In this document: one piece after another, positions 2,325-13,428 of the stretch
Position numbering within the stretch: position 1 is the stretch's first letter
Layout of the letters: each line of letters starts with the position of its first letter
Assembly (NCBI GenBank): GCA_965225855.1
Contig: CBDDCK010000004.1
Coordinates: 32,001 to 96,000, forward strand
From: Spirochaetia bacterium
Lineage (GTDB): Bacteria > Spirochaetota > Spirochaetia > SP-2023
DNA: 64,000 nucleotides
Direction of reading: 5' to 3'
Made by a program: the position numbers and the translations under genes
Notes under the pieces: generated by a model
Told to the model about the DNA's origin: nothing
The model's database searches: none
The model's input: the letters and a program-made list of their open reading frames with translations, nothing else

Positions 2325-2975
2325 ATGGTATTAAATAGTATTACAGGTATTTTAACGCAGAAACAAAGTAGCTTTGCTTGTTGTCAGGTTGGCGGTATTG
2401 AATGGTTGCTAGCTATGAGTGAGCAAAGCTTGTCTATGCTACCGGCTATCGGTAGTGAAGTTTGTATTTATACCCAACTTAAATTGAGTGAAAATAGTAT
2501 TGTCCTTTATGGCTTTACTAGCTATCAAGAACGCAGTTTGTTTGAATCTTTGGTGTCGGTTTCGGGTATTGGGCCTAAAGCGGCATTGGCTATGCTTTCT
2601 AAAGCCAAAGTAGGAAATTTGGCGGCTGCAATTATTGAAGGTGATGCCCAGTTTTTAAGTACATTGCCGGGCTTAGGTACGAAGACCGCACAAAAAATTA
2701 TCTTACAATTGGGGGATAAACTAGCCAAACAGCTTTTGCAACATAGCCCCAACCAAGCGGAAACTATAGATAACAAAGCCGCAAATAAACAATTACCAGA
2801 GTATTACCAAAAGCAAACTGAATATACAGAATTATTGAATGCCTTAGTGGCGATGGGCTATGCAGAGCCAAACTGCCGTAAAGTGCTAGACCAACTATCC
2901 AATCATTGGCAACAAAATAAGCCAGAAGAAGGTGAGCAATTACGCCAAGCCATTGTCGGTTTAAGTAGTGTATGA
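2325..2975 (+). CDS. ruvA: Holliday junction branch-migration protein RuvA
   Basis: LYGF...ERSLFESLVSVSGIGPKAAL, PGLGTKTAQKIILQL HhH motifs, C-terminal ALVAMGY; ATG 2325 preferred over TTG 2211. Confidence 0.93.
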   Translation: MVLNSITGILTQKQSSFACCQVGGIEWLLAMSEQSLSMLPAIGSEVCIYTQLKLSENSIVLYGFTSYQERSLFESLVSVSGIGPKAALAMLSKAKVGNLAAAIIEGDAQFLSTLPGLGTKTAQKIILQLGDKLAKQLLQHSPNQAETIDNKAANKQLPEYYQKQTEYTELLNALVAMGYAEPNCRKVLDQLSNHWQQNKPEEGEQLRQAIVGLSSV

Positions 2976-4264
2976 ATCAAAAACAACTATATCAATTGCC
3001 GCCTTGGTTTTATTTGAGCAGTGAGGCTTTGCATAAACTGGAGCGAAATTTACTGCGTTTTGCCCGCAGTTTTCGTTTGAGCCATAGCCAAATAGAGCAA
3101 CTCTGTAAAATGGCAAAAGATTTATCAGATTGGGGGGAAGTTAGTTCCTTAAAAGAATTTTTAAGGACTCAAGCCGAAAGTTTGCGTAGTTGTGATTGGG
3201 ATAATCCACAACCCAACAAGCGAAACCCACAACAACGCAAGCAGGCAATGGCTGACTTGGCTAGCTTTTATCAAAGTAAGCAACAGCTATTACCGAATTT
3301 TCAACGCAGTGTGCCCAAACCCAAGGTGCCCAAATATCGTTTTGAGGTCTTGGAACAAAAGGGCCAGATACTTGGTTCTTGCCCAGTGGCTTCGGTCAAA
3401 ACTCGTTGTTGTAACTTGCTAACTTTAGATGCCATACAACAATGTGGCTTTGGTTGTAGTTACTGTGCTATTCAACATTTCTACGATGATAAAGCTATCC
3501 AATTCCGAGGAGACTTTAGCCAAAAGCTAGAACAATTAGAGCTGGACCCGGAAAAATATTATCATATCGGTACCGGTCAATCATCGGATTCACTGTTGTG
3601 GATTGAAGGTTCCGGAGTGCTAGAACCATTGCTTAACTTTGCCCGTAAGTATCCCCGCGCTATACTGGAATTTAAGAGCAAGTCTGCCAATATCAAGACT
3701 TTTCTGCAAAAAGATCTAGCCCCGAACATGCTTTTTACTTGGTCTTTAAATCCGGATAGCTTTATTCGCCATGAGGAAGCCCTTACCGCACCGTTAGATG
3801 CTCGTTTGCGCGCAGCCCGGCAAATGGCTGACCGAGGGGCAAAAGTTGGTTTCCACTTCCACCCAATTGTACGCTATCAGGGTTGGAAAACCGAATATCG
3901 CGAGCTGGCCCAAAGAGTAGGAGAGTTATTTGATTCTAATGAAGTAGTTACAATTTCCTTAGGTACACTTACGTTTAGTAAGTCTGCCTTAAAGACCATA
4001 CGGCAGAAAGCCGAGCAAACCCAGATATTGCGCTTTGCGATGGAAGAAATTGCCGGCAAGTTTTCTTATAGTTATCAGGCTAAAAAACAAATGTTTTCTC
4101 TAGTGTACCAAGCTTTGCAGCCTTGGCATCAAAAGGTATTTTTCTACCTATGCATGGAAGACCCCGCCCTATGGCCCGATGTTTTTGGCTACCAATACCC
4201 CAACAACCACGCCTTTGAACAAGATATGCTCACCAGCTACGCCGATAAAATGGGTTTAACTTAA
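2972..4264 (+). CDS. Radical SAM protein, spore photoproduct lyase (SplB)-like
   Basis: CGFGCSYC cluster motif, HIGTGQSSDSL, LEFKSKS, WSLNP, GFHFHPI, YLCME; ATGA overlap with ruvA stop. Confidence 0.8.
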   Translation: MNQKQLYQLPPWFYLSSEALHKLERNLLRFARSFRLSHSQIEQLCKMAKDLSDWGEVSSLKEFLRTQAESLRSCDWDNPQPNKRNPQQRKQAMADLASFYQSKQQLLPNFQRSVPKPKVPKYRFEVLEQKGQILGSCPVASVKTRCCNLLTLDAIQQCGFGCSYCAIQHFYDDKAIQFRGDFSQKLEQLELDPEKYYHIGTGQSSDSLLWIEGSGVLEPLLNFARKYPRAILEFKSKSANIKTFLQKDLAPNMLFTWSLNPDSFIRHEEALTAPLDARLRAARQMADRGAKVGFHFHPIVRYQGWKTEYRELAQRVGELFDSNEVVTISLGTLTFSKSALKTIRQKAEQTQILRFAMEEIAGKFSYSYQAKKQMFSLVYQALQPWHQKVFFYLCMEDPALWPDVFGYQYPNNHAFEQDMLTSYADKMGLT

Positions 4265-4488
4265 AGTATAATTCAACTCTACTTTATCTAGTTACTAATC
4301 TATTTATATGATACTTTATTCATCTATATATCTAATATAATTTTTTAATATATGATTAAACTAATATTAAAGTATTATACTTCATTTTTAATAATAAATA
4401 AAAATGAAATTTTTATGATGATTTTTTGTAAAAATGTCTTTATTCATTTTTGATTTAACCGATAATATCCACAACAAACTTAAAGGAG
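4202..4488 (+). repeat. Direct repeat L, copy 1 (radical-SAM gene 3' end + AT-rich leader + RBS)
   Basis: Aligns with 7960-8290; the last 43 bp (4446-4488) are identical to 8248-8290. Confidence 0.9.
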
Positions 4489-4494
4489 ATTTTT

Positions 4495-4725
4495 ATGAAA
4501 GGTATAAATTTAGATAGGGTAATTAAATCAATAGGAAAATCATGTTTGATTGATTGTTATGAAATAGCAAGTCGTAAAGGTGAGAATTTAACCATAGATG
4601 ACTTAATTCAATATCACCAAATACTAAAAGGTCAAAAATATAGTGGTCTTTGTACTCGTCTATCTCAAATAAAAAGGCTTTATCGAGAAAGGCTTTTAGA
4701 TAGTGCTATATCTAGGGTGAAGTAA
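4495..4725 (+). CDS. Hypothetical 76-aa protein
   Basis: ATG with strong AAAGGAG RBS; no recognised family. Confidence 0.6.
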   Translation: MKGINLDRVIKSIGKSCLIDCYEIASRKGENLTIDDLIQYHQILKGQKYSGLCTRLSQIKRLYRERLLDSAISRVK

Positions 4726-4786
4726 TTGATAAATTGGGATAATAGGAAATATGAACGTTACATAATTAAATTTTTAAGAGGGTTAA

Positions 4787-6145
4787 ATGAAAGACTTTTT
4801 ATGTGTAAAGATTACTAAGACTAATTTTAAGGAAAAAATACTTCCTTATGAAGATTTGTTAAAATATGAAATCTTGTATAAATGGAAATCAAAACGAGAT
4901 ATTGATTATGTTGTAGGCATATATGATAATATGATTCAAGCTGTATATAAGGTTTCTGGTTATGATATTGAATATGCTAATGAAGGAGAATATAAAGGTG
5001 AGCGGAGAAATTATTATCCTTATGGTGAACTAGATATAGATTTGACAAGAGAATTATCTGGCCGAAATGCATATGAATTAGTGCAAGGAAAGCAAAATCC
5101 AGTTAGTTATCATTCTTTAGAAATATTAAGTAAATTGCCAATATTAGACCCATCTTTTTGGCAAATCGTAATTAAAGAAGGTAAAGATTATATAAGCACA
5201 ACCCAAACACTAAAAGAGCAGCTCAAAGAATTAGTTAGAGCTAACCACAACCTAGTATTAACCGGAGCACCGGGTACGGGTAAAACCTATCTGGCAAAAG
5301 AAATTGCAAAGGAAATTACCGAAGGTGTAGATGGTGCAATTGGTTTTGTGCAGTTTCATAGTTCCTATGATTATACCGACTTTGTCGAAGGTTTGCGGCC
5401 GTTTATTACCAAAGATGGGCAAAATAGTTTCAAATTGCAAGACGGTATATTTAAGGATTTCTGTAAACGAGCAGCAAAAAATGAAAACCAAAAGCAGAAA
5501 TATGTATTTATTATTGACGAAATAAACCGAGCCGAACCGAGTAGAGTTTTGGGTGAATTATTCTTTGCCATAGAGCCCGGCTATCGTGGTGTAGAGGGCA
5601 AAGTAAAGACTCAATACGCCAACTTAAACCAAGAAAAAGATAGAATGTCTTATAAAACAGAAGGCAAACTTGAAAAATTAGAGCCCGGTTATTTCTATAT
5701 ACCGGAAAATGTCTTTATAATTGGCACGATGAATGATATAGACCGCAACGTCGATAGTATGGACTTTGCCATGCGCCGGCGCTTTGTTTGGAAGGAGATT
5801 CTAGCTAGTGAGACAACCGAAATGTTGGATAGCACAGATGAAGACAATCGAAGAATCTTAACGCCTGAATTAGCCCAGCAAGCCAAAAACCGTATGACGA
5901 ACCTGAACAACAATATAACCGAGGTTTTGGGAAGTACGGCTTTTCATATTGGCGCAAGTTATTTCTTAAAGCTAAAAAATTATAGTGGCGACTTTGGCCA
6001 TTATAATGGCGACTTTGGCCAATTATGGGATCTACACCTAAAGCCCTTACTTTCCGAGTATTTACGCGGTATGCCGGATTCTGAAGATAAGTTAAAGACT
6101 TTGAAAAACAGCTATGATGGCATAGTAGAAAATCAAGATAGTTAG
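4787..6145 (+). CDS. mcrB: McrB-family AAA+ GTPase, copy 1
   Basis: GAPGTGKT Walker A, VQFHSSYDYTDFVEG, IIDEINRA Walker B, GTMNDIDR (McrB NxxD), DFAMRRRF, IGASYF. Confidence 0.92.
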   Translation: MKDFLCVKITKTNFKEKILPYEDLLKYEILYKWKSKRDIDYVVGIYDNMIQAVYKVSGYDIEYANEGEYKGERRNYYPYGELDIDLTRELSGRNAYELVQGKQNPVSYHSLEILSKLPILDPSFWQIVIKEGKDYISTTQTLKEQLKELVRANHNLVLTGAPGTGKTYLAKEIAKEITEGVDGAIGFVQFHSSYDYTDFVEGLRPFITKDGQNSFKLQDGIFKDFCKRAAKNENQKQKYVFIIDEINRAEPSRVLGELFFAIEPGYRGVEGKVKTQYANLNQEKDRMSYKTEGKLEKLEPGYFYIPENVFIIGTMNDIDRNVDSMDFAMRRRFVWKEILASETTEMLDSTDEDNRRILTPELAQQAKNRMTNLNNNITEVLGSTAFHIGASYFLKLKNYSGDFGHYNGDFGQLWDLHLKPLLSEYLRGMPDSEDKLKTLKNSYDGIVENQDS

Positions 6146-6222
6146 TAATTGTAAAAATATTTCTAACCCAATTATTACATATTCTTTGTTTAGAAATATC
6201 TAATAATTGGATTGCTGGTATT
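6141..6222 (+). repeat. Direct repeat R, copy 1 (post-mcrB imperfect hairpin)
   Basis: Aligns with 9659-9740; CCAATTATT...AATAATTGG inverted arms. Confidence 0.8.
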
Positions 6223-6326
6223 TTGTTTATGGATTGATTATTAACTACTTTACAGTAGATAACAAGGTATATTTAAAATCAATAGAGCAGATTAATAGGT
6301 AGCTAGTTACTTTAAGCCATAGGTTT

Positions 6327-7397
6327 TTATTGTTGTTTGTTGGTTTGTATGCCTAAAGATTGGAGTATACAATTTGTATCATCATTGGGTAGGCAATAAT
6401 CTTTGATAAGCGGTTTTAATTTATTTTGTTTTAAATAAGCCTTTCTTTGTGCCTTGTTAATTAGCTTGTAGTGAAACAAGGTATTGAGAATACATTCCAT
6501 AGAAATAGTATATTTTTTGTAGGTTTGTACTAAAGTTTGTTCTAGTTGTTGGTTGGTTTGCAGTGGCTTGGTTGTATTTAGTTGGTCTTGCGTTAGTAAT
6601 AAGTAACCGGCAAATTTATTGGCAAAGTCTTCATTATCATCAAATAGCAGGTGGTACAGTTCATGCCCTATGGTGAAAAATATTCTGCGTAAATGTTCGG
6701 TATAATTAGAATAGACAATAATAGTAGGAATATTGCCATTACAGGCAAAGCCCGATAGACCATCAATACAAGGGTGCGGCGCTTTGCTTTTAGATAATAA
6801 AGCAATGCCATATTGAGCTAAAAACTGGCGGATATACCTAAGGAAGCCTTTATTAGCACGATTGATTTGGTTGGCAAAGTTCTTAATGGCGTTCTCAAAT
6901 TTTTGATAATCTAAGTTAATGCAATTTTGCGCTTGCTGCTTTAATAGTTTAAATGCAGCCCCATCTATGTTAGATTCTAATTGCTTGGCTTGTTGGGCAA
7001 TATCGGCTTTTTGTTGTTCTGTGAGTATTTCATAGATATTGAGCTCTAAGTTTTTCAATGTTCGGGCATTGATATTGGCAAAATCTTGATGCTGTAAGTC
7101 GATACTTTTATCGCGGTTGTATTGAATGGCAATATCGTAATCATAAGTTTTGTACTTATCTTTGATTTGTCCTAGATATTGATGGAATTGAAGATTGCGA
7201 AATAAACTTTTATTGTTGTACCATACTTCATAGTTTTCTATAATTTCTTCATCTTCATAATCAAAGTAGCGATCTTTGTAGAAACCTACTTGAAAATCTT
7301 TACAACCAGTTTGCTGGGCATAGTCTTTTAGTTCAGAACAAACAGCATAGATAGTTTGGAACATCTTTTGTTTTTTGGCTAATTTAGTAACAGGCAT
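6327..7397 (-). CDS. ImmA/IrrE-family zinc metallopeptidase domain protein with uncharacterised N-terminal region
   Basis: IDGLS...PTIIV...RRIFFTIGHELYHLL...EDFANKFAGYLLL is the typical ImmA/IrrE (DUF955) HExxH and E..AN.FA signature; no N-terminal HTH seen. Confidence 0.8.
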   Translation of the reverse strand: MPVTKLAKKQKMFQTIYAVCSELKDYAQQTGCKDFQVGFYKDRYFDYEDEEIIENYEVWYNNKSLFRNLQFHQYLGQIKDKYKTYDYDIAIQYNRDKSIDLQHQDFANINARTLKNLELNIYEILTEQQKADIAQQAKQLESNIDGAAFKLLKQQAQNCINLDYQKFENAIKNFANQINRANKGFLRYIRQFLAQYGIALLSKSKAPHPCIDGLSGFACNGNIPTIIVYSNYTEHLRRIFFTIGHELYHLLFDDNEDFANKFAGYLLLTQDQLNTTKPLQTNQQLEQTLVQTYKKYTISMECILNTLFHYKLINKAQRKAYLKQNKLKPLIKDYCLPNDDTNCILQSLGIQTNKQQ

Positions 7398-7828
7398 TAT
7401 GATTTATCCTTTTCTGGCAAGCTAAAATCTTTAAAGCATTCTAGTTTATTTAATAAATTGAGTATAGCAATACATTTTCCCCAAGTTTCTTTATCGTTTT
7501 CCAAAATACTGGGCTTATAGTCGGCAAGGTTTCGATATTTTTTGAGTCTTTCAATATTATCTTTGTGTTTTGCATATTGATTTGGATTTTGTTGGCAAAA
7601 AGTTTCTATTATATTATGGTGGGTTTTCTTTTTAGCCTTTTTTTGGTTAGTGGTTTGGTTATCTGGTGTTTGCTGCTCACTCACTACAAAGCATATTCTT
7701 TGATACACAGCATAATACAACCGACTAATGGCAATATGATATTGTTGCTGTGTTATAGCCCAACAACAAACCCCAAAGCTATCTTGAGATTTTTGTCTTA
7801 AATCTATTTTATTGTGCATAATAATCAA
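7397..7828 (-). CDS. HEPN-domain protein (putative RNase toxin)
   Basis: AISRLYYAVYQ, THH and LKKYRNLADY match the small HEPN family pattern SR.YYA...H...R..ADY; stop overlaps the next ATG (TAATG). Confidence 0.78.
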   Translation of the reverse strand: MIIMHNKIDLRQKSQDSFGVCCWAITQQQYHIAISRLYYAVYQRICFVVSEQQTPDNQTTNQKKAKKKTHHNIIETFCQQNPNQYAKHKDNIERLKKYRNLADYKPSILENDKETWGKCIAILNLLNKLECFKDFSLPEKDKS

Positions 7829-7959
7829 ATACTATACCATATCTATAATAACAATCAAATGGAAATTTTCTTGTATTTTATAAAATATCAAGATTCTTTA
7901 ATACATTACATAATATAACTTACTGATAGAAATATAGTATTATTACTATGTTATAAACT

Positions 7960-8290
7960 AACAATCACGCCTTTGAACAATATATGCTAAGCAGCTATGC
8001 CGATAAAATGGGCTTACATTAAATTATAATTTAAGCCTATTATATTAAACTACTAATCTAATTATTCAATACTTTACTAAGCTATATGCCTAATATTGCC
8101 TTTAAAGATATGATTAAACTAAACTAAAACTATTATAAAGCTACTATACTTAGCCATTAAAAATAAAATCAAAATATCATCATTGGTTTCTGAAAATAAT
8201 TTAAAATAGAATTTTTATGATAATTTTTTGTAAAAATATCTTCATTTATTTTTGATTTAACCGATAATATCCACAACAAACTTAAAGGAG
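7960..8290 (+). repeat. Direct repeat L, copy 2; begins with an orphan copy of the radical-SAM gene 3' end
   Basis: 7960-8022 reads NNHAFEQYMLSSYADKMGLH* versus NNHAFEQDMLTSYADKMGLT* at 4202-4264. Confidence 0.9.
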
Positions 8291-8297
8291 CTTTCTA

Positions 8298-9659
8298 ATG
8301 GAAACAGAATATATTAACAATCTTAATAATATAGTAAATGGTAATGAGCAGACAATTGCTGTATATTCAAGACTTAAAGATCAGAAAAAATTTATATATA
8401 ATGGTTCTAATCGCAAGGTCTATGATAAGGATAATAAAGGTGATGGTTATACAGGTTGTTGGAATATAAGTAAAGATGCAGTTTCAAATATTATTGAGAA
8501 AGATTATAGATATTCATTCATTATTATTTATATGGAAGAAGAATCTAAAAACGTTATTTATAAAGCTGTTATATGTAAACTTGAACTTGATAATCCAAAC
8601 TATTATTTAATCCGCTTTAAATCATGTAAACGTTTAGGTACAACTAAACAAAATTGGTTAAAATTTTCAGGAGATAGAGAACCTATAAAATACTTTCCGA
8701 TCAAAGATATTGGCAACCCACAACCAAAACAAATTCAACCCCAAACACTAAAAGAGCAGCTCAAAGAATTAGTTAGAGCTAACCACAACCTAGTATTGAC
8801 TGGGGCACCGGGTACCGGTAAAACTTTTTTGGCAAGGGAAATTGCAGAGGAATTGACTCAAGATTATGATGGTGCAATTGGTTTTGTGCAGTTTCATAGT
8901 TCTTATGACTATACCGACTTTGTCGAAGGTTTGCGTCCAGTAGCTAGTAATGAGCAAGGTGGGGCAAATGGTTTTGCCTTGCAAGATGGTATATTTAAGG
9001 CCTTTTGTAAAAAAGCTGCCAAAGACCACAATAACAAATATGTATTTATTATTGACGAAATAAACCGAGCCGAACCGAGTAGAGTTTTGGGTGAATTATT
9101 CTTTGCCATAGAGCCCAGCTATCGTGGTGTAAAAGGCAAAGTACAAACTCAATACGCCAACTTAAATAAAAAACCAATGGCTTGGTATGATGATAAAGAA
9201 GGCAAACTTGAAAAATTAGAACCGGGTTATTTCTATGTACCGAAAAATGTCTATATTATTGGCACGATGAATGATATAGACCGCAATGTCGATAGTATGG
9301 ACTTTGCCATGCGCCGGCGTTTTGTTTGGAAAGAGATTCTAGCTAGTGAGACAACCGAAATGTTGGATAGCACAGATGAAGACAATCAAAGAATCTTAAC
9401 GCCTGAACTAGCCCAGCAAGCCAAAAACCGTATGGCTAACCTGAACAACAAAATAACCGAGGTTTTGGGAAGTACGGCTTTTCATATTGGCGCAAGCTAT
9501 TTCTTAAAGCTAAAAAATTATAGTGGCGACTTTGGCCAATTATGGGATTTGCATATAAAGCCCTTACTTTCAGAGTATTTACGCGGTATGCCAGAGTTTG
9601 AAAATAGACTAGAAACTTTGGAAAAATCCTATAATGGCATAGTAGAAAATCAAGGATAA
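8298..9659 (+). CDS. mcrB: McrB-family AAA+ GTPase, copy 2
   Basis: Same motifs as copy 1; closely similar from QTLKEQLKELVRANHNL onward, unrelated first ~145 aa. Confidence 0.92.
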   Translation: METEYINNLNNIVNGNEQTIAVYSRLKDQKKFIYNGSNRKVYDKDNKGDGYTGCWNISKDAVSNIIEKDYRYSFIIIYMEEESKNVIYKAVICKLELDNPNYYLIRFKSCKRLGTTKQNWLKFSGDREPIKYFPIKDIGNPQPKQIQPQTLKEQLKELVRANHNLVLTGAPGTGKTFLAREIAEELTQDYDGAIGFVQFHSSYDYTDFVEGLRPVASNEQGGANGFALQDGIFKAFCKKAAKDHNNKYVFIIDEINRAEPSRVLGELFFAIEPSYRGVKGKVQTQYANLNKKPMAWYDDKEGKLEKLEPGYFYVPKNVYIIGTMNDIDRNVDSMDFAMRRRFVWKEILASETTEMLDSTDEDNQRILTPELAQQAKNRMANLNNKITEVLGSTAFHIGASYFLKLKNYSGDFGQLWDLHIKPLLSEYLRGMPEFENRLETLEKSYNGIVENQG

Positions 9660-9740
9660 TTAGTAATTCTTGGATATATTCTAACCCAATTATTATTTAT
9701 TTTCTATTTAGAAATATCGAATAATTGGGTTGCTGGTATT
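9659..9740 (+). repeat. Direct repeat R, copy 2 (hairpin between mcrB and mcrC)
   Basis: AACCCAATTATT...AATAATTGGGTT 12-bp arms at 9683-9731. Confidence 0.8.
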
Positions 9741-9811
9741 GGTTTTTTAGATACTTAGTATCTAGTTTTGGTTTTGATTTTATTGTATAAATTGTATTTG
9801 GGAAATATACT

Positions 9812-11200
9812 ATGCCATTGATAACAAACAAAGACAATTCACAAAAATTTATTGAAGACATAGAACAATCGAAAGATTTTCTTGAAAAATTTAATAATAA
9901 AACTCTGGATAATATTAGGAATGAGCATAAAGATTTAATTATTTGTGATGCAAAAGATTTTAGTAGTAATTCCCAAAAAGCTAGTGAAAAGGGCAATAGC
10001 CAAAAGATTTGGAACTTAAAAGATAATACTCTCCAGACCCATAATATAGTGGGTATAGTCGGAGATGGCCAAACCACAGTGCAGATCAATTCTCGTTTTG
10101 ATACAGAAACATCATTCAATTTTCTTCATTATATGTTGGCTAAGGTATTCCAGCCCAATATATTGGACTCAAAATTACCGTATGGCCACTCTAGTATATT
10201 CGATCTATTGCCGTATTTATTACCTGCTAAATACCAGCAAGCCTATAGTCGGCAGGGTTTATATAGAGAATATCGCACTTTGGAATATAATGATACCAAA
10301 CCGCAGGGGGCTTTGGATATAGCCCGCCATATCAAACAGAATATGCCGTTTGGCGCTAGTATCTGCTATAGAAAAAGAAGCCGTGAATATGATAACCCGA
10401 TAACTCGGCTTTTACAGTGTAGTTTTGCCTATGTAAAAACAACATACCCGGGGCTTGATTTTAGCAATAGCCGTACTCTAAATAATCTACCATTGCGAGA
10501 GGCTATTACCGAATTGCAACGCCATATACCGTATATTAGCCCTTCCGATATTGATAGGCAAATCCCCAAAATATTACAGGCTACGGCTAAATCTATACGC
10601 TCTCCGTATTTTAGTATCTATGAACCGCTTCGCCAACTATGTAGAGCCATACTGCAACAACAGAAAATCCAGCCTCAAAACCCAAAACAAGCAGGGCCAA
10701 TACACGGTATTTTGTTTGACGCAGCTTGGCTTTGGGAAGAATATCTAACTACATTGATGCCCCAAAATACCAAACATGCTTACGCGCGAATTAAAGATGG
10801 CATAAAGATTTTTAGCGAAGGTGGAAGTGGTTGTATCTATCCCGATTTTTATGATCAAGATAATCATATAGTGCTAGATGCCAAATATAAAAGGCTAGAT
10901 AACCATACCATAGGTCGGGAAGACCGTTACCAGATGATTAGTTATCTATATATCTTAAAGGCCAATCAAGCCATATTACTATACCCCAGCCAAACAGAAG
11001 GGCAGCAAGAACCGAATAATTTTTATGGTAAACTCAATGGTTATGGGGGAACATTGCAAACTTACGGCTTAAAAATTCCCCAGTCGCAAGGCGATTCAAT
11101 GGACTTTAGGGAATTTAGCGAGCAAATGAAGCAGACGGAAAAACAATTTATAGAAGATTATCATACAATATGTGGAGACACACAGGCAAAAGTAAGCTAA
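9812..11200 (+). CDS. mcrC: McrC-family PD-(D/E)xK endonuclease subunit
   Basis: NIVGIV, INSRF, FLHYML, GLYREY, LFDAAWLWEEY, IYPDF...VLDAKYK, REDRYQMISY; directly after mcrB. Confidence 0.92.
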   Translation: MPLITNKDNSQKFIEDIEQSKDFLEKFNNKTLDNIRNEHKDLIICDAKDFSSNSQKASEKGNSQKIWNLKDNTLQTHNIVGIVGDGQTTVQINSRFDTETSFNFLHYMLAKVFQPNILDSKLPYGHSSIFDLLPYLLPAKYQQAYSRQGLYREYRTLEYNDTKPQGALDIARHIKQNMPFGASICYRKRSREYDNPITRLLQCSFAYVKTTYPGLDFSNSRTLNNLPLREAITELQRHIPYISPSDIDRQIPKILQATAKSIRSPYFSIYEPLRQLCRAILQQQKIQPQNPKQAGPIHGILFDAAWLWEEYLTTLMPQNTKHAYARIKDGIKIFSEGGSGCIYPDFYDQDNHIVLDAKYKRLDNHTIGREDRYQMISYLYILKANQAILLYPSQTEGQQEPNNFYGKLNGYGGTLQTYGLKIPQSQGDSMDFREFSEQMKQTEKQFIEDYHTICGDTQAKVS

Positions 11201-11211
11201 TATAGCCTACT

Positions 11212-11757
11212 ATGAATCCATACTTGAATAATGACCAAACTTGCCTAACCAAACCATTGGTGCAAGCCGTGCTAAAAAGCTTCCATATGAACCCCTATCA
11301 TAGTATTCATGGGATTTCTCACTGGATGCGGGTGCGGTATAACGGCCTTTTGGTGGCAGAATATAGCGCTGCCGACCCCAAAATTATCGAATTGTTCTCT
11401 TTGTTTCACGATTGTTGTCGTCAAAATGATGGTATAGACCCCGGGCATGGTAGGCGTGGTGGCTTGCTAGCTAAGGATTTTTTTGACCGTGGACAATTAG
11501 ATTGCAACGCCAAACAATTACAAATCATTATCGAGGCTTGCAATAATCATACTTCCGGTTATAACCATACCGACCCCAATATTGCTAGTTGTTGGGATGC
11601 CGACCGTTTAGATTTGCCTAGAGTGGGTATAGATATAGACCCTCAATACCTTTCTACCGACTTTGCAAAAAAGCAACCAGTAATCCTACAAGCTAGTATA
11701 CGCGCAAAAAATCAAGAAAATCATCTAGGCGATATACCGTATCTTTGGGACCAATAA
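11212..11757 (+). CDS. HD-domain phosphohydrolase
   Basis: HGISHWMRV, FHD, DPGHG, CWDADRLDL; starts 11 bp after mcrC. Confidence 0.85.
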   Translation: MNPYLNNDQTCLTKPLVQAVLKSFHMNPYHSIHGISHWMRVRYNGLLVAEYSAADPKIIELFSLFHDCCRQNDGIDPGHGRRGGLLAKDFFDRGQLDCNAKQLQIIIEACNNHTSGYNHTDPNIASCWDADRLDLPRVGIDIDPQYLSTDFAKKQPVILQASIRAKNQENHLGDIPYLWDQ

Positions 11758-11946
11758 TTGGATATAATTATTGGTATATCATAAACATCATGCTTAGATT
11801 ATATCGAAATAAATATCCTTAGATACTATCATTATAGTCTTGAATATAGATATTTTCTACTGAAAATATTATATTTTGCTACTTGATTCTATGATTATTT
11901 ACACCATAAATATAGTTATCGTATAACCAGGTATACGGGGTTTGGT

Positions 11947-12444
11947 ATGAACTATTGGCTAATGAAATCAGAACCGGCTGTATTTAGTATAGACGATTTA
12001 CAAATCAATACTGAAAAATATGCTAAAGAAATTTGGGACGGAGTACGGAATTACCAAGCCCGAAACTATCTAAAACAAATGCAACAACATGATTGGGCTT
12101 TTTTCTATCATTCTAATTGCAAGGTACCGGGTATCTATGGATTGATGAAGATTGTCGAGCAAAATATCGTAGACCCTAGCCAGTTTGACCCTCAAAGTAA
12201 GTATTTTGATCGGAAATCCAAGCCAGATAACCCACGCTGGCATACGGTATCGGTAGCTTTTTTACAAAAGTATTCGAGTCCGGTTACTTTAGAACAGCTA
12301 AAGCAACAATATCCTGAACAACAATATGGTAAGGATTTTGCACTCATAAAACGCGCAACTAGGCTTTCGGTAATGCCGGTGCCTAAAGAAATATTCAATG
12401 ATATTTGTCAAAGCATTATAGAAATATCCGAGCCATTATCATGA
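11947..12444 (+). CDS. EVE-domain protein (PUA superfamily, Thy28-like)
   Basis: MNYWLMKSEP, WDGVRNYQARNY, FFYHSNC, DPSQFDP, RLSVMPV. Confidence 0.93.
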   Translation: MNYWLMKSEPAVFSIDDLQINTEKYAKEIWDGVRNYQARNYLKQMQQHDWAFFYHSNCKVPGIYGLMKIVEQNIVDPSQFDPQSKYFDRKSKPDNPRWHTVSVAFLQKYSSPVTLEQLKQQYPEQQYGKDFALIKRATRLSVMPVPKEIFNDICQSIIEISEPLS

Positions 12445-13428
12445 TATTGATAGAATATGTATGATGATATTGATCTGTATTTCGCTTTACTTATTTCAGT
12501 CTGATTATGGTAATCAAAGATTCTATATAGTAGTTTATTCTCATCATCATTACCAACAATAAGCTGTTCTATAGAATTGATATAATTACCATAGCAAATT
12601 GCTATAGTCCGATCAATATAGCATAGCTATTATATGATGATAATATATATAATCTAAACTAAAATTATAGACATCAATATTTATAGAACAAATTGGAACA
12701 TTTATTGTATCATTCACGGTACTATAAAGGTACAAATAGCTATAAACTATCTAAGTTTTCCATAAAAACTATGGATATTGTAGTTTATATCTTCCATATT
12801 ACCATTCTACTAATATGATAATTATACTTATAAAAATACATAATATCAATATACTGCAAATATTGCGATAGAAAGGATTATAGATAATAAAACATATATA
12901 AAATATATTTTGCTATATTATTATATTTAATAAATATAACTTTATCTATATATTTACATAATATATGAAATATATAGATAAATTCTGTTTGTATCAATAT
13001 ATTTTAGTAATATCTATAATGAAAGAATCTAATTTATATAGAGCCTTTCATGAATGTTAATTCTATTGCCAAGGTAGAACTATATATTGTATTGTCGAAT
13101 ATAAAAGACTAAAATTGTTAATTACTTTCTTCAAGAGGAATCTTAATAACATCAAAACCCTAACTCTATAATATGGAGATATAAAAATTTTTTCTTTAGC
13201 ACTTCTATCTATGTTTTTCAGGAAAGTATGAATTGAGTTAAAGTTATTATATGTTGTTTGTAAGTAACTTTAGCCAAATATTTTTAGAATAATAAAGCAT
13301 TGTTGGCGGATTGTTTGGGATAGAAATTTGTTTTTATGGTAACAAAGATAACTATGCTAGATAGCCCTTGCTTATTATAAGCAAATTCGCTATCTTTATC
13401 ACCATTGTTCGATATTTTAGGAGCTACT

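Follow-up and report, generated by a model that had tools for sequence, protein, structure and literature searches.

A pair of mcrB genes upstream of a single mcrC

We analysed a 64,000-nucleotide (nt) stretch of DNA from a Spirochaetia bacterium (GenBank assembly GCA_965225855.1, contig CBDDCK010000004.1, positions 32,001 to 96,000 of the forward strand), which we call the window and within which all coordinates are given. It contains a chromosomal McrBC-type restriction locus in which two mcrB genes, mcrB1 and mcrB2, are accompanied by one mcrC gene. In McrBC, the N-terminal domain of McrB recognises modified DNA, the GTPase hexamerises and McrC cleaves. From a RuvA/SPL-like gene pair to a gene encoding an EVE domain, the + strand carries, in order, orf76, mcrB1, mcrB2, mcrC and an open reading frame (ORF) of 181 amino acids (aa). 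The mcrB copies are not adjacent but are separated by two genes on the minus strand (7397-7828 and 6327-7397). The features of the duplication and its nuclease gene are listed here, with N1 and N2 denoting the N-terminal regions of McrB1 and McrB2.

SPL-like radical-SAM gene, 2972-4264, + strand: PF20903 match, E 3.5e-16; its 3' end (4199-4264) is the left edge of repeat unit 1
Leader 1, 4265-4494, + strand: 43-nt stretch 4446-4488 identical to 8248-8290; AAGGAG site ahead of 4495
orf76, 4495-4725, + strand: 76 aa, no known family; first gene of variable stretch 1; GC content at third codon positions (GC3) 0.156
mcrB1, 4787-6145, + strand: 452 aa; N1 at 4787-5201, AAA+ GTPase core at 5202-6145
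Hairpin after mcrB1, 6154-6224, + strand: conserved, imperfect, followed by a T-rich run; -16.8 kcal/mol, z -1.85; ends unit 1 (about 6234)
SPL-like gene relic, 7957-8022, + strand: last 21 codons plus stop; left edge of repeat unit 2
Leader 2, 8023-8297, + strand: identical 43 nt at 8248-8290; AAGGAG site ahead of 8298
mcrB2, 8298-9659, + strand: 453 aa; N2 at 8298-8739, AAA+ GTPase core at 8740-9659
Hairpin after mcrB2, 9683-9731, + strand: conserved, followed by GGUUUUUU; -24.9 kcal/mol, z -3.6; ends unit 2 (about 9752)
mcrC, 9812-11200, + strand: PF10117 match, E 2.9e-44 over residues 74-392; PD...DAK nuclease motif

An initial annotation, made from the sequence letters and a list of ORFs, had described two co-oriented mcrB genes in direct repeat. 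Profile searches confirmed this assignment, with both ORFs matching AAA_5 (E 4.8e-18 for mcrB1, 1.9e-18 for mcrB2) and the McrB model NF008457 (E 2.2e-39 and 1.5e-41; 135 and 143 bits, under its equivalog cut-off of 637).

The two copies form a diverged direct repeat

The locus holds a real, diverged direct duplication of ~2 kb. Global alignment of both units places them at about 4199-6234 and 7957-9752, longer than initially stated, each comprising the end of the upstream SPL-like gene, a leader, an mcrB gene and a hairpin. The left border falls inside the 3' end of the SPL-like gene, of which a 21-codon relic (7957-8022) stands ahead of copy 2; this relic reads TNNHAFEQYMLSSYADKMGLH up to its stop codon, the true end of the SPL-like gene reads PNNHAFEQDMLTSYADKMGLT up to its own, and 17 of the 21 residues agree. 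The right border follows the conserved hairpin with its T-rich tail.

From Q140 of McrB1 and Q149 of McrB2 to the C-terminus, 254 of 313 residues are identical (81%, BLASTP), and ahead of these positions BLASTP finds no significant similarity between the two proteins, leaving unrelated N-terminal parts that correspond to the first 139 codons of mcrB1 and the first 148 of mcrB2. At the DNA level, similarity begins at 5202/8740 with 58 identical bases and continues at 76-97% up to the stop, in good agreement with the abrupt onset first noticed near ~5203 and ~8741. On the other side of the variable stretches, the leaders are identical over exactly 43 nt (4446-4488 = 8248-8290). The DNA beside both perfect stretches is 76-88% identical between the copies.

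The identical 43-bp leader had initially been read as supplying both mcrB genes with a ribosome-binding site (RBS). The identity itself is exact, but in copy 1 it is orf76, not mcrB1, that follows the shared leader with its AAGGAG site; mcrB1 starts 61 nt beyond orf76, directly after an in-frame TAA, and has a purine-rich RBS of its own. Because the copy 1 leader and RBS serve orf76, variable stretch 1 consists of a small gene plus N1 (708 nt), and variable stretch 2 of N2 alone (443 nt). Another difference between the copies is an in-frame 21-nt tandem repeat in mcrB1 (5979-6020; ATTATAGTGGCGACTTTGGCC / ATTATAATGGCGACTTTGGCC), which adds seven residues, GDFGHYN, that are absent from McrB2.

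Both copies are linked in read contigs

Contigs from a public sequencing run (X1), possibly the sample behind the assembly, match the window with 0 differences and cover the following parts of the locus.

3000-4475: SPL-like gene into leader 1
4459-5231: leader 1 through cassette 1 (variable stretch 1) into the core
5971-7513: mcrB1-specific tail into the middle genes
7484-8277: middle genes through the relic into leader 2, with a 30-nt overlap with the 5971-7513 contig
8261-8769: leader 2 through N2 into the core
9509-12600: mcrB2 tail through mcrC and beyond

Since these contigs take the mcrB tail on to the second leader, the two units lie on one molecule. The initial annotation had named a misassembly of two strain haplotypes as a way in which the locus could be misread; checked in the X1 contigs, a collapsed or stacked arrangement was not borne out, and tandem linkage was found. 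Parts of the SPL-like gene, the middle genes, mcrC, the HD-like 181-aa ORF and the EVE gene also occur, at about 87-99% identity, in two runs of another study under another organism label (X4 and X5). Neither cassette nor most of the cores is covered in these runs at 80% likeness, a gap that is not evidence given their low-depth contigs, and run X6, of the same species label, gave no matching contig, which is not proof of absence.

Two intact McrB cores and one McrC nuclease

The core resembles that of E. coli McrB (6hz4, E 3.8e-37). The Walker A motif GAPGTGKT-Y/F, the Walker B motif FIIDEINR, the consensus loop TMNDIDR and the RRRF motif do not vary among the two copies and six relatives. 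McrB-type AAA+ proteins are characterised, in the available portion of a recent preprint (10.64898/2026.08.31.748284), by an aromatic residue after the P-loop, a Walker B motif, an NxxD loop replacing sensor I and adjacent arginines, and both copies possess this set. Between the cores, the proportion of silent sites that differ (pS) is 0.24 and that of replacement sites (pN) 0.09, giving a ratio of replacement to silent rates (dN/dS) of 0.35. Such purifying selection indicates that neither mcrB copy was released from selection while the two diverged over a long time.

McrC combines the McrBC family domain with a PD-(D/E)xK nuclease motif, here IYPDF...LDAKYK (PD...DAK), which is aligned and conserved with 12 relatives; its sequence had no PDB match at E 0.001. 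That there is a single mcrC, as initially annotated, is upheld at the level of the genome, in which this gene is the only PF10117 match (2.7-Mb, 94%-complete assembly). A search of the same genome with the McrB query returned these two mcrB genes only. mcrB2 lies directly upstream of mcrC on the same strand, across a 152-nt gap that contains the hairpin.

Searches with the N-terminal regions

Neither N1 nor N2 has a match in Pfam, PHROGs or the PDB, and no solved McrB N-domain was matched by sequence. Word-based searches of 5.8 billion proteins with N1 only and N2 only, in which the candidates were only ~250-790 residues long, found the query's own protein alone, and tblastn against plasmids and phages gave no match for either region. 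Two marginal matches to N1 (E about 0.008-0.009) and one genome matching N2 (E 0.003) in a six-frame search of 400 genomes of the class were taken as chance. The best ESM Atlas scores for N1 and N2 (0.84 and 0.85) lie inside the range obtained with shuffled sequences, and a PUA-like label on 13% of one ESM Atlas cluster is at noise level.

For N2, a HMMER search of 1.84 billion representative proteins returned seven matches at E up to 0.001. Five of the seven are stand-alone proteins of 113-124 aa (P0130-P0134; E 4.8e-8 to 1.6e-5) that cover N2 residues 6-133. The alignment of this family has 13 invariant positions, eight of them aromatic, and the small proteins conserve G..G.W, IYKA, F.NC and NW..F....P.(R/K)Y motifs. 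Scanning metagenomes with a three-protein N2 alignment yielded two loci; in the longer one (L140), the small gene (5989-6363 in that locus) lies between tamB and an integrase fragment/IS1595-type transposase, and McrBC is not present. The protein encoded by orf76 has no Pfam or PHROG family match and is on record as a called protein in a singleton cluster.

We regard N1 and N2 as candidates for new DNA-recognition folds, N1 being an orphan and N2 apparently stemming from a family of small stand-alone proteins. A function in target recognition is suggested for both because the variable N-terminal domain has that role in studied McrB proteins; it is their position ahead of the core that points to it here.

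Composition and traces of recombination

As initially noted, the first ~140 codons of the two genes are unrelated and AT-rich, with a GC content of 0.28 in N1 and 0.27 in N2 against 0.39 in the cores. The difference is also seen in GC3, which is 0.156 in orf76, 0.173 in N1 and 0.162 in N2, compared with 0.38 and 0.34 in the cores, 0.335 in mcrC and 0.32-0.41 in host genes. In both copies, the codon-usage break falls exactly at the junction. Conservation across eight family members starts at L149, ten residues past the swap point Q140.

Silent differences are distributed unevenly along the cores, at 17 of 77 codons in 5204-5500, 9 of 137 in 5500-5985 and 6 of 32 in 5985-6145. This mosaic is significant when the first segment is compared with the second (Fisher p 0.0017); the longest silent-identical run, tested alone, gives P 0.07. 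The two cores are each other's nearest kin: the next protein among the 5.8 billion is 58% identical, and the best McrB matches in 60 related genomes reach 61% (same genus, another locus) and 58%.

These patterns are consistent with a history in which the unit was duplicated, or a diverged allele of this SPL-mcrB junction was captured, after which AT-rich N-terminal modules were gained at the linker and gene conversion acted in patches, although this order of events is tentative.

Two putative readers for one nuclease

We consider it probable that the two McrB paralogs share the single McrC, making this a duplicated-reader McrBC Type IV locus. Two readers serving one nuclease had already been put forward in the initial annotation, and the anatomy of the locus fits, with both paralogs intact, under purifying selection and each other's closest kin, and with one McrC. 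In such a system, N1 and N2 would act as target-recognition domains, and each paralog would form GTP-dependent hexamers that recruit McrC, either separately or mixed; mixed hexamers are conceivable since the cores are 81% identical, and a literature search for McrB hetero- or mixed hexamers had no McrB paper among the results listed. Recombination at the linker would have brought in both N-regions from a source richer in AT, and parts of leader and core would afterwards have been homogenised by gene conversion between the two copies. Each mcrB would be transcribed from a separate promoter within the conserved leader and be followed by a hairpin, in which case transcription of mcrC would depend on read-through from mcrB2 or on a separate promoter. 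A scan of 4100-12700 for promoters and terminators was uninformative, with 49 promoter-like sites against 44.1 expected and none in the conserved leader.

Several results weigh against this reading. mcrB1 lies 3.6 kb upstream of mcrC, and because a hairpin and two opposite-strand genes intervene, the two cannot be on one transcript; the shared RBS of copy 1 is used by orf76 and not by mcrB1. No relative of N1 turned up in Pfam, PHROGs or the PDB, in the word-based protein search, in the 400 genomes of the class or in plasmids and phages, and the small-protein family related to N2 has no Pfam or PDB match and no known function. AlphaFold2 single-sequence models of N1 and N2 are unusable, with predicted local distance difference test (pLDDT) values of 33.1 and 46.4. 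The linkage seen in X1 is not an independent check, as this run is possibly the source sample, and the X1 contigs, which break inside the 43-nt and 58-nt identities, leave the assignment of each cassette to its position to the assembly.

Some of these points would also fit a reading, which we hold to be unlikely, in which orf76-mcrB1 delivers no DNA to McrC and is either left over from the duplication, redundant or diverging, or acts as a modulator. As a modulator, McrB1 would at most titrate McrC or mix into McrB2 rings, tuning activity; the short McrB-S form of E. coli is said to tune activity. Separation of mcrB1 from mcrC by the hairpin and two opposite-strand genes, the use of the shared RBS by orf76, the 21-nt in-frame tandem repeat in the C-terminal part of mcrB1 and an N1 without relatives anywhere searched would all be accommodated. 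A functionless gene would, however, be expected to decay, and mcrB1 does not look like a decayed leftover, because its 452 codons are uninterrupted, no catalytic motif has been lost and dN/dS is 0.35 despite a pS of 0.24. A modulator, in turn, would have no need of a 139-residue N-region.

The initial annotation had gone further and proposed that specificity is changed by exchange of N-terminal cassettes between the conserved flanks. Past recombination is supported by the codon break at the junction, the 43-nt and 58-nt flanks and the mosaic silent divergence; an exchange system in operation is not. A broad form of the idea, rather doubtful in our estimation, treats the leader and a 19-codon N-linker as fixed docking points at which reader cassettes, even with a small helper gene of their own, as orf76 would be, recombine onto one motor across the population. 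The genome would then have caught two cassettes side by side, feeding one McrC.

The narrower form, in which the identical leader and linker are recombination anchors that swap reader modules between strains or copies, seems to us improbable. It could account for perfect 43-nt and 58-nt identities flanking the variable stretches in DNA that is otherwise 76-88% identical, for two cassettes that both look foreign in codon usage, for a whole extra gene held between the same flanks in variable stretch 1 and for the mosaic of silent differences. A parallel is offered by mcrB alleles of Campylobacter jejuni, in which, according to the part of the report at hand, the C-terminal part is conserved and the N-terminal part divergent (PMC8713573). 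Against an operating system, no third copy of leader, junction or hairpin is found anywhere in the genome, and a Pfam scan of 12 neighbouring ORFs revealed no recombinase. Because the repeats are direct, recombination within the pair would not diversify the readers but delete or homogenise them, and a swap would only exchange or lose readers. Gene conversion, or constraint on regulatory and linker sequence, would explain the identical stretches equally well.

Exchange at the level of the population is possible. Among the records compared there was no strain-level relative, and no other cassette was seen at the same junctions: of nine locus proteins looked up, seven are on record, each in a singleton cluster at 90% identity, and two are not in the collection, while three other genomes of the genus have only the RuvA-SPL pair in common with the locus, at ~70% DNA identity. 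It is because the locus proteins are singletons and the genus genomes share only RuvA-SPL that no alternative cassette is seen.

That mcrB1 belongs instead to a separate system with orf76 and the HEPN-like and ImmA-like middle genes, and does not use McrC, is very improbable. The genes are close together, and the middle genes match phage-related families and, weakly, antitoxin or defence models; they are, however, on the opposite strand and outside the repeat unit, none of 81 other McrBC loci has a homologue of either gene or of orf76 next to it, and the mcrB1 core is far closer to that of mcrB2 than to any other. An assembly artefact stacking two strain haplotypes, to which repeats in the locus and contigs broken at identical stretches longer than the short-read contig word length might have pointed, can be all but set aside, since the X1 contigs without a single difference link the mcrB1 tail, middle genes and leader 2, the SPL-like gene and leader 1, and the mcrB2 tail and mcrC, and since the copies differ by 3-24% along their length and hence are not collapsed reads.

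If both paralogs do work with one McrC, as we think probable, the locus would represent a compact widening of Type IV range that needs no additional nuclease. Nature has also made an experiment here, by fusing two unrelated N-regions to 81% identical motors at precisely one and the same linker residue. Engineered McrB fusions need careful linker design, according to the portion of the preprint cited above (10.64898/2026.08.31.748284), and the mcrB pair shows a natural joint position for such fusions. Were the docking-point form true, it would amount to natural plug-and-play retargeting of the McrBC motor.

Comparison with known systems

The locus shares with E. coli K-12 McrBC the AAA+ core motifs (6hz4, E 3.8e-37), an N-terminal region ahead of them and a downstream McrC with PF10117 and PD-(D/E)xK. 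E. coli has one mcrB, which overlaps mcrC and yields long and short products from one gene. The present locus, in contrast, has a pair of mcrB genes that are unrelated in their N-regions and are each provided with a leader and a hairpin, and mcrB2 is separated from mcrC by 152 nt.

Both variable McrB N-domains and one McrC for two McrBs are already in print. In Bacillus anthracis, one McrC-like protein may pair with McrBP or McrB3P, giving two specificities, as proposed in the consulted portion of a review (PMC4722110). The second McrB there is at another locus (BA_2283 as opposed to BA_0927/0928) and is not described, in that portion, as a recent duplicate with a shared core, whereas here the paralogs are in tandem, with 81% identical cores and the same swap point; nuclease sharing is a proposal in both cases. 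For C. jejuni mcrB, the excerpted report (PMC8713573) describes alleles of one locus whose C-terminal GTPase part is conserved while the N-terminal part diverges strongly, from which its authors infer different target specificity. Each genome there has a single form, the two being found in separate strains, and one of them is a pseudogene, whereas here two forms stand side by side in one genome. In LlaI/BsuMI, which are non-canonical systems of three genes, a separate R1 protein binds DNA and the motor has no N-domain, and the authors, in the preprint text available, speculate that gene shuffling diversified McrBC and stress the N-linker (10.64898/2026.08.31.748284). What is common to those systems, as described there, and to this locus is a modular build in which the part that targets DNA can be separated from the McrB-type motor; unlike the LlaI/BsuMI motor, both motors here carry 139-148 residues ahead of the core. 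The main text of an McrBC census (PMC11090510), as far as it was available, makes no mention of a second, multiple or tandem McrB, or of paralogs.

Programmed specificity-switching loci such as shufflons and phase-variable hsdS carry silent spare cassettes together with inverted repeats at their exchange points, and a site-specific recombinase is encoded nearby. Here, by comparison, there are two flank copies only, the repeats are direct and none of the 12 ORFs scanned encodes a recombinase.

Among 79 loci with McrB relatives from other genomes, mcrC was present within the stretch examined in 75, beside the core in nearly all. Tandem full McrB cores were found in two of the 79 (L077 and L069), both from Anaerobiospirillum metagenome-assembled genomes. 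L069 has two tandem cores. L077 (2198-9151 in that locus) has mcrC (PF10117 E 1.6e-44), a 178-aa ORF and three co-oriented tandem McrBs of 525-565 aa, whose N-regions are 53-63% and cores 76-79% identical, the most variable part being in the middle of the N-region. It differs from the present locus in that mcrC comes first and the paralogs are alike over their whole length; because of this likeness, L077 represents divergence of one reader fold and not its replacement by unrelated sequence. A metagenome scan with McrC gave 177 pattern matches, none of them a relative.

In 10 of these 79 McrB proteins, an insertion directly behind the Walker A helix interrupts the match to the core (L038, L063, L064, L068, L072, L078, L085, L088, L092 and L094). 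The gap is about 670-820 nt in nine of these loci and about 260 nt in L063; in L092, a single 671-aa ORF has ~230 extra residues between GAPGTGKTYLAKQIAKEIV and the FHPSYDYTDF strand.

Neighbouring genes

The remaining genes around the duplication are as follows.

RuvA gene, 2211-2975: upstream partner of the SPL-like gene
ImmA/IrrE-like gene, 6327-7397, - strand: 356 aa, HELYH motif; outside the repeat
Weakly HEPN-like gene, 7397-7828, - strand: 143 aa; upstream partner of the 356-aa gene
181-aa ORF, 11212-11757, + strand: starts 12 nt after mcrC; weak HD-domain match
EVE-domain gene, 11947-12444: stand-alone; PF01878 match, E 1.5e-50

The 356-aa protein matches phrog_2439 (E 1.8e-14), with weak matches to the ImmA/IrrE, spr1629 antitoxin (E 5.6e-5), CapP (PADLOC capP) and RmrA models. 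Its 143-aa partner matches phrog_5176 (E 5.8e-7); the HEPN match is weak (E 0.11), and RNLADY occupies the place of the HEPN motif Rx4-6H. The minus-strand pair (6327-7828) has the look of a toxin-antitoxin or abortive-infection module within a defence islet. Low-depth X1 contigs (depth 2 compared with about 12) carry variants in the 143-aa gene, namely base changes at 7540 and 7548, a 113-nt skip (7578-7692) and an 86-nt back-step (7842-7757), which may be a minor variant or error.

The 181-aa ORF, with a PF01966 match under the cut-off (E 0.0041; 17.8 bits, cut-off 22), is likely co-transcribed with mcrC and may be an extra effector or an unrelated passenger. Like orf76 and the two middle genes, neither this ORF nor the EVE gene has a homologue beside any of the 81 other McrBC loci.

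The EVE protein was considered as a third reader and rejected. Homologues (59-62% identical) stand in unrelated contexts in two genomes of the same genus (G002 and G003), and a search with this McrB query did not find McrB in G003. Because its same-genus homologues sit elsewhere, without McrBC, we regard the EVE gene as a neighbour and not as a part of the system, probably adjoining the McrBC locus by chance. Between the EVE gene and clpP (12450-13350) lie ~900 nt of non-coding DNA with a GC content of 0.17-0.25, where the + strand has no ORF of at least 60 aa and several short direct and inverted repeats occur (D17, I1, I4).

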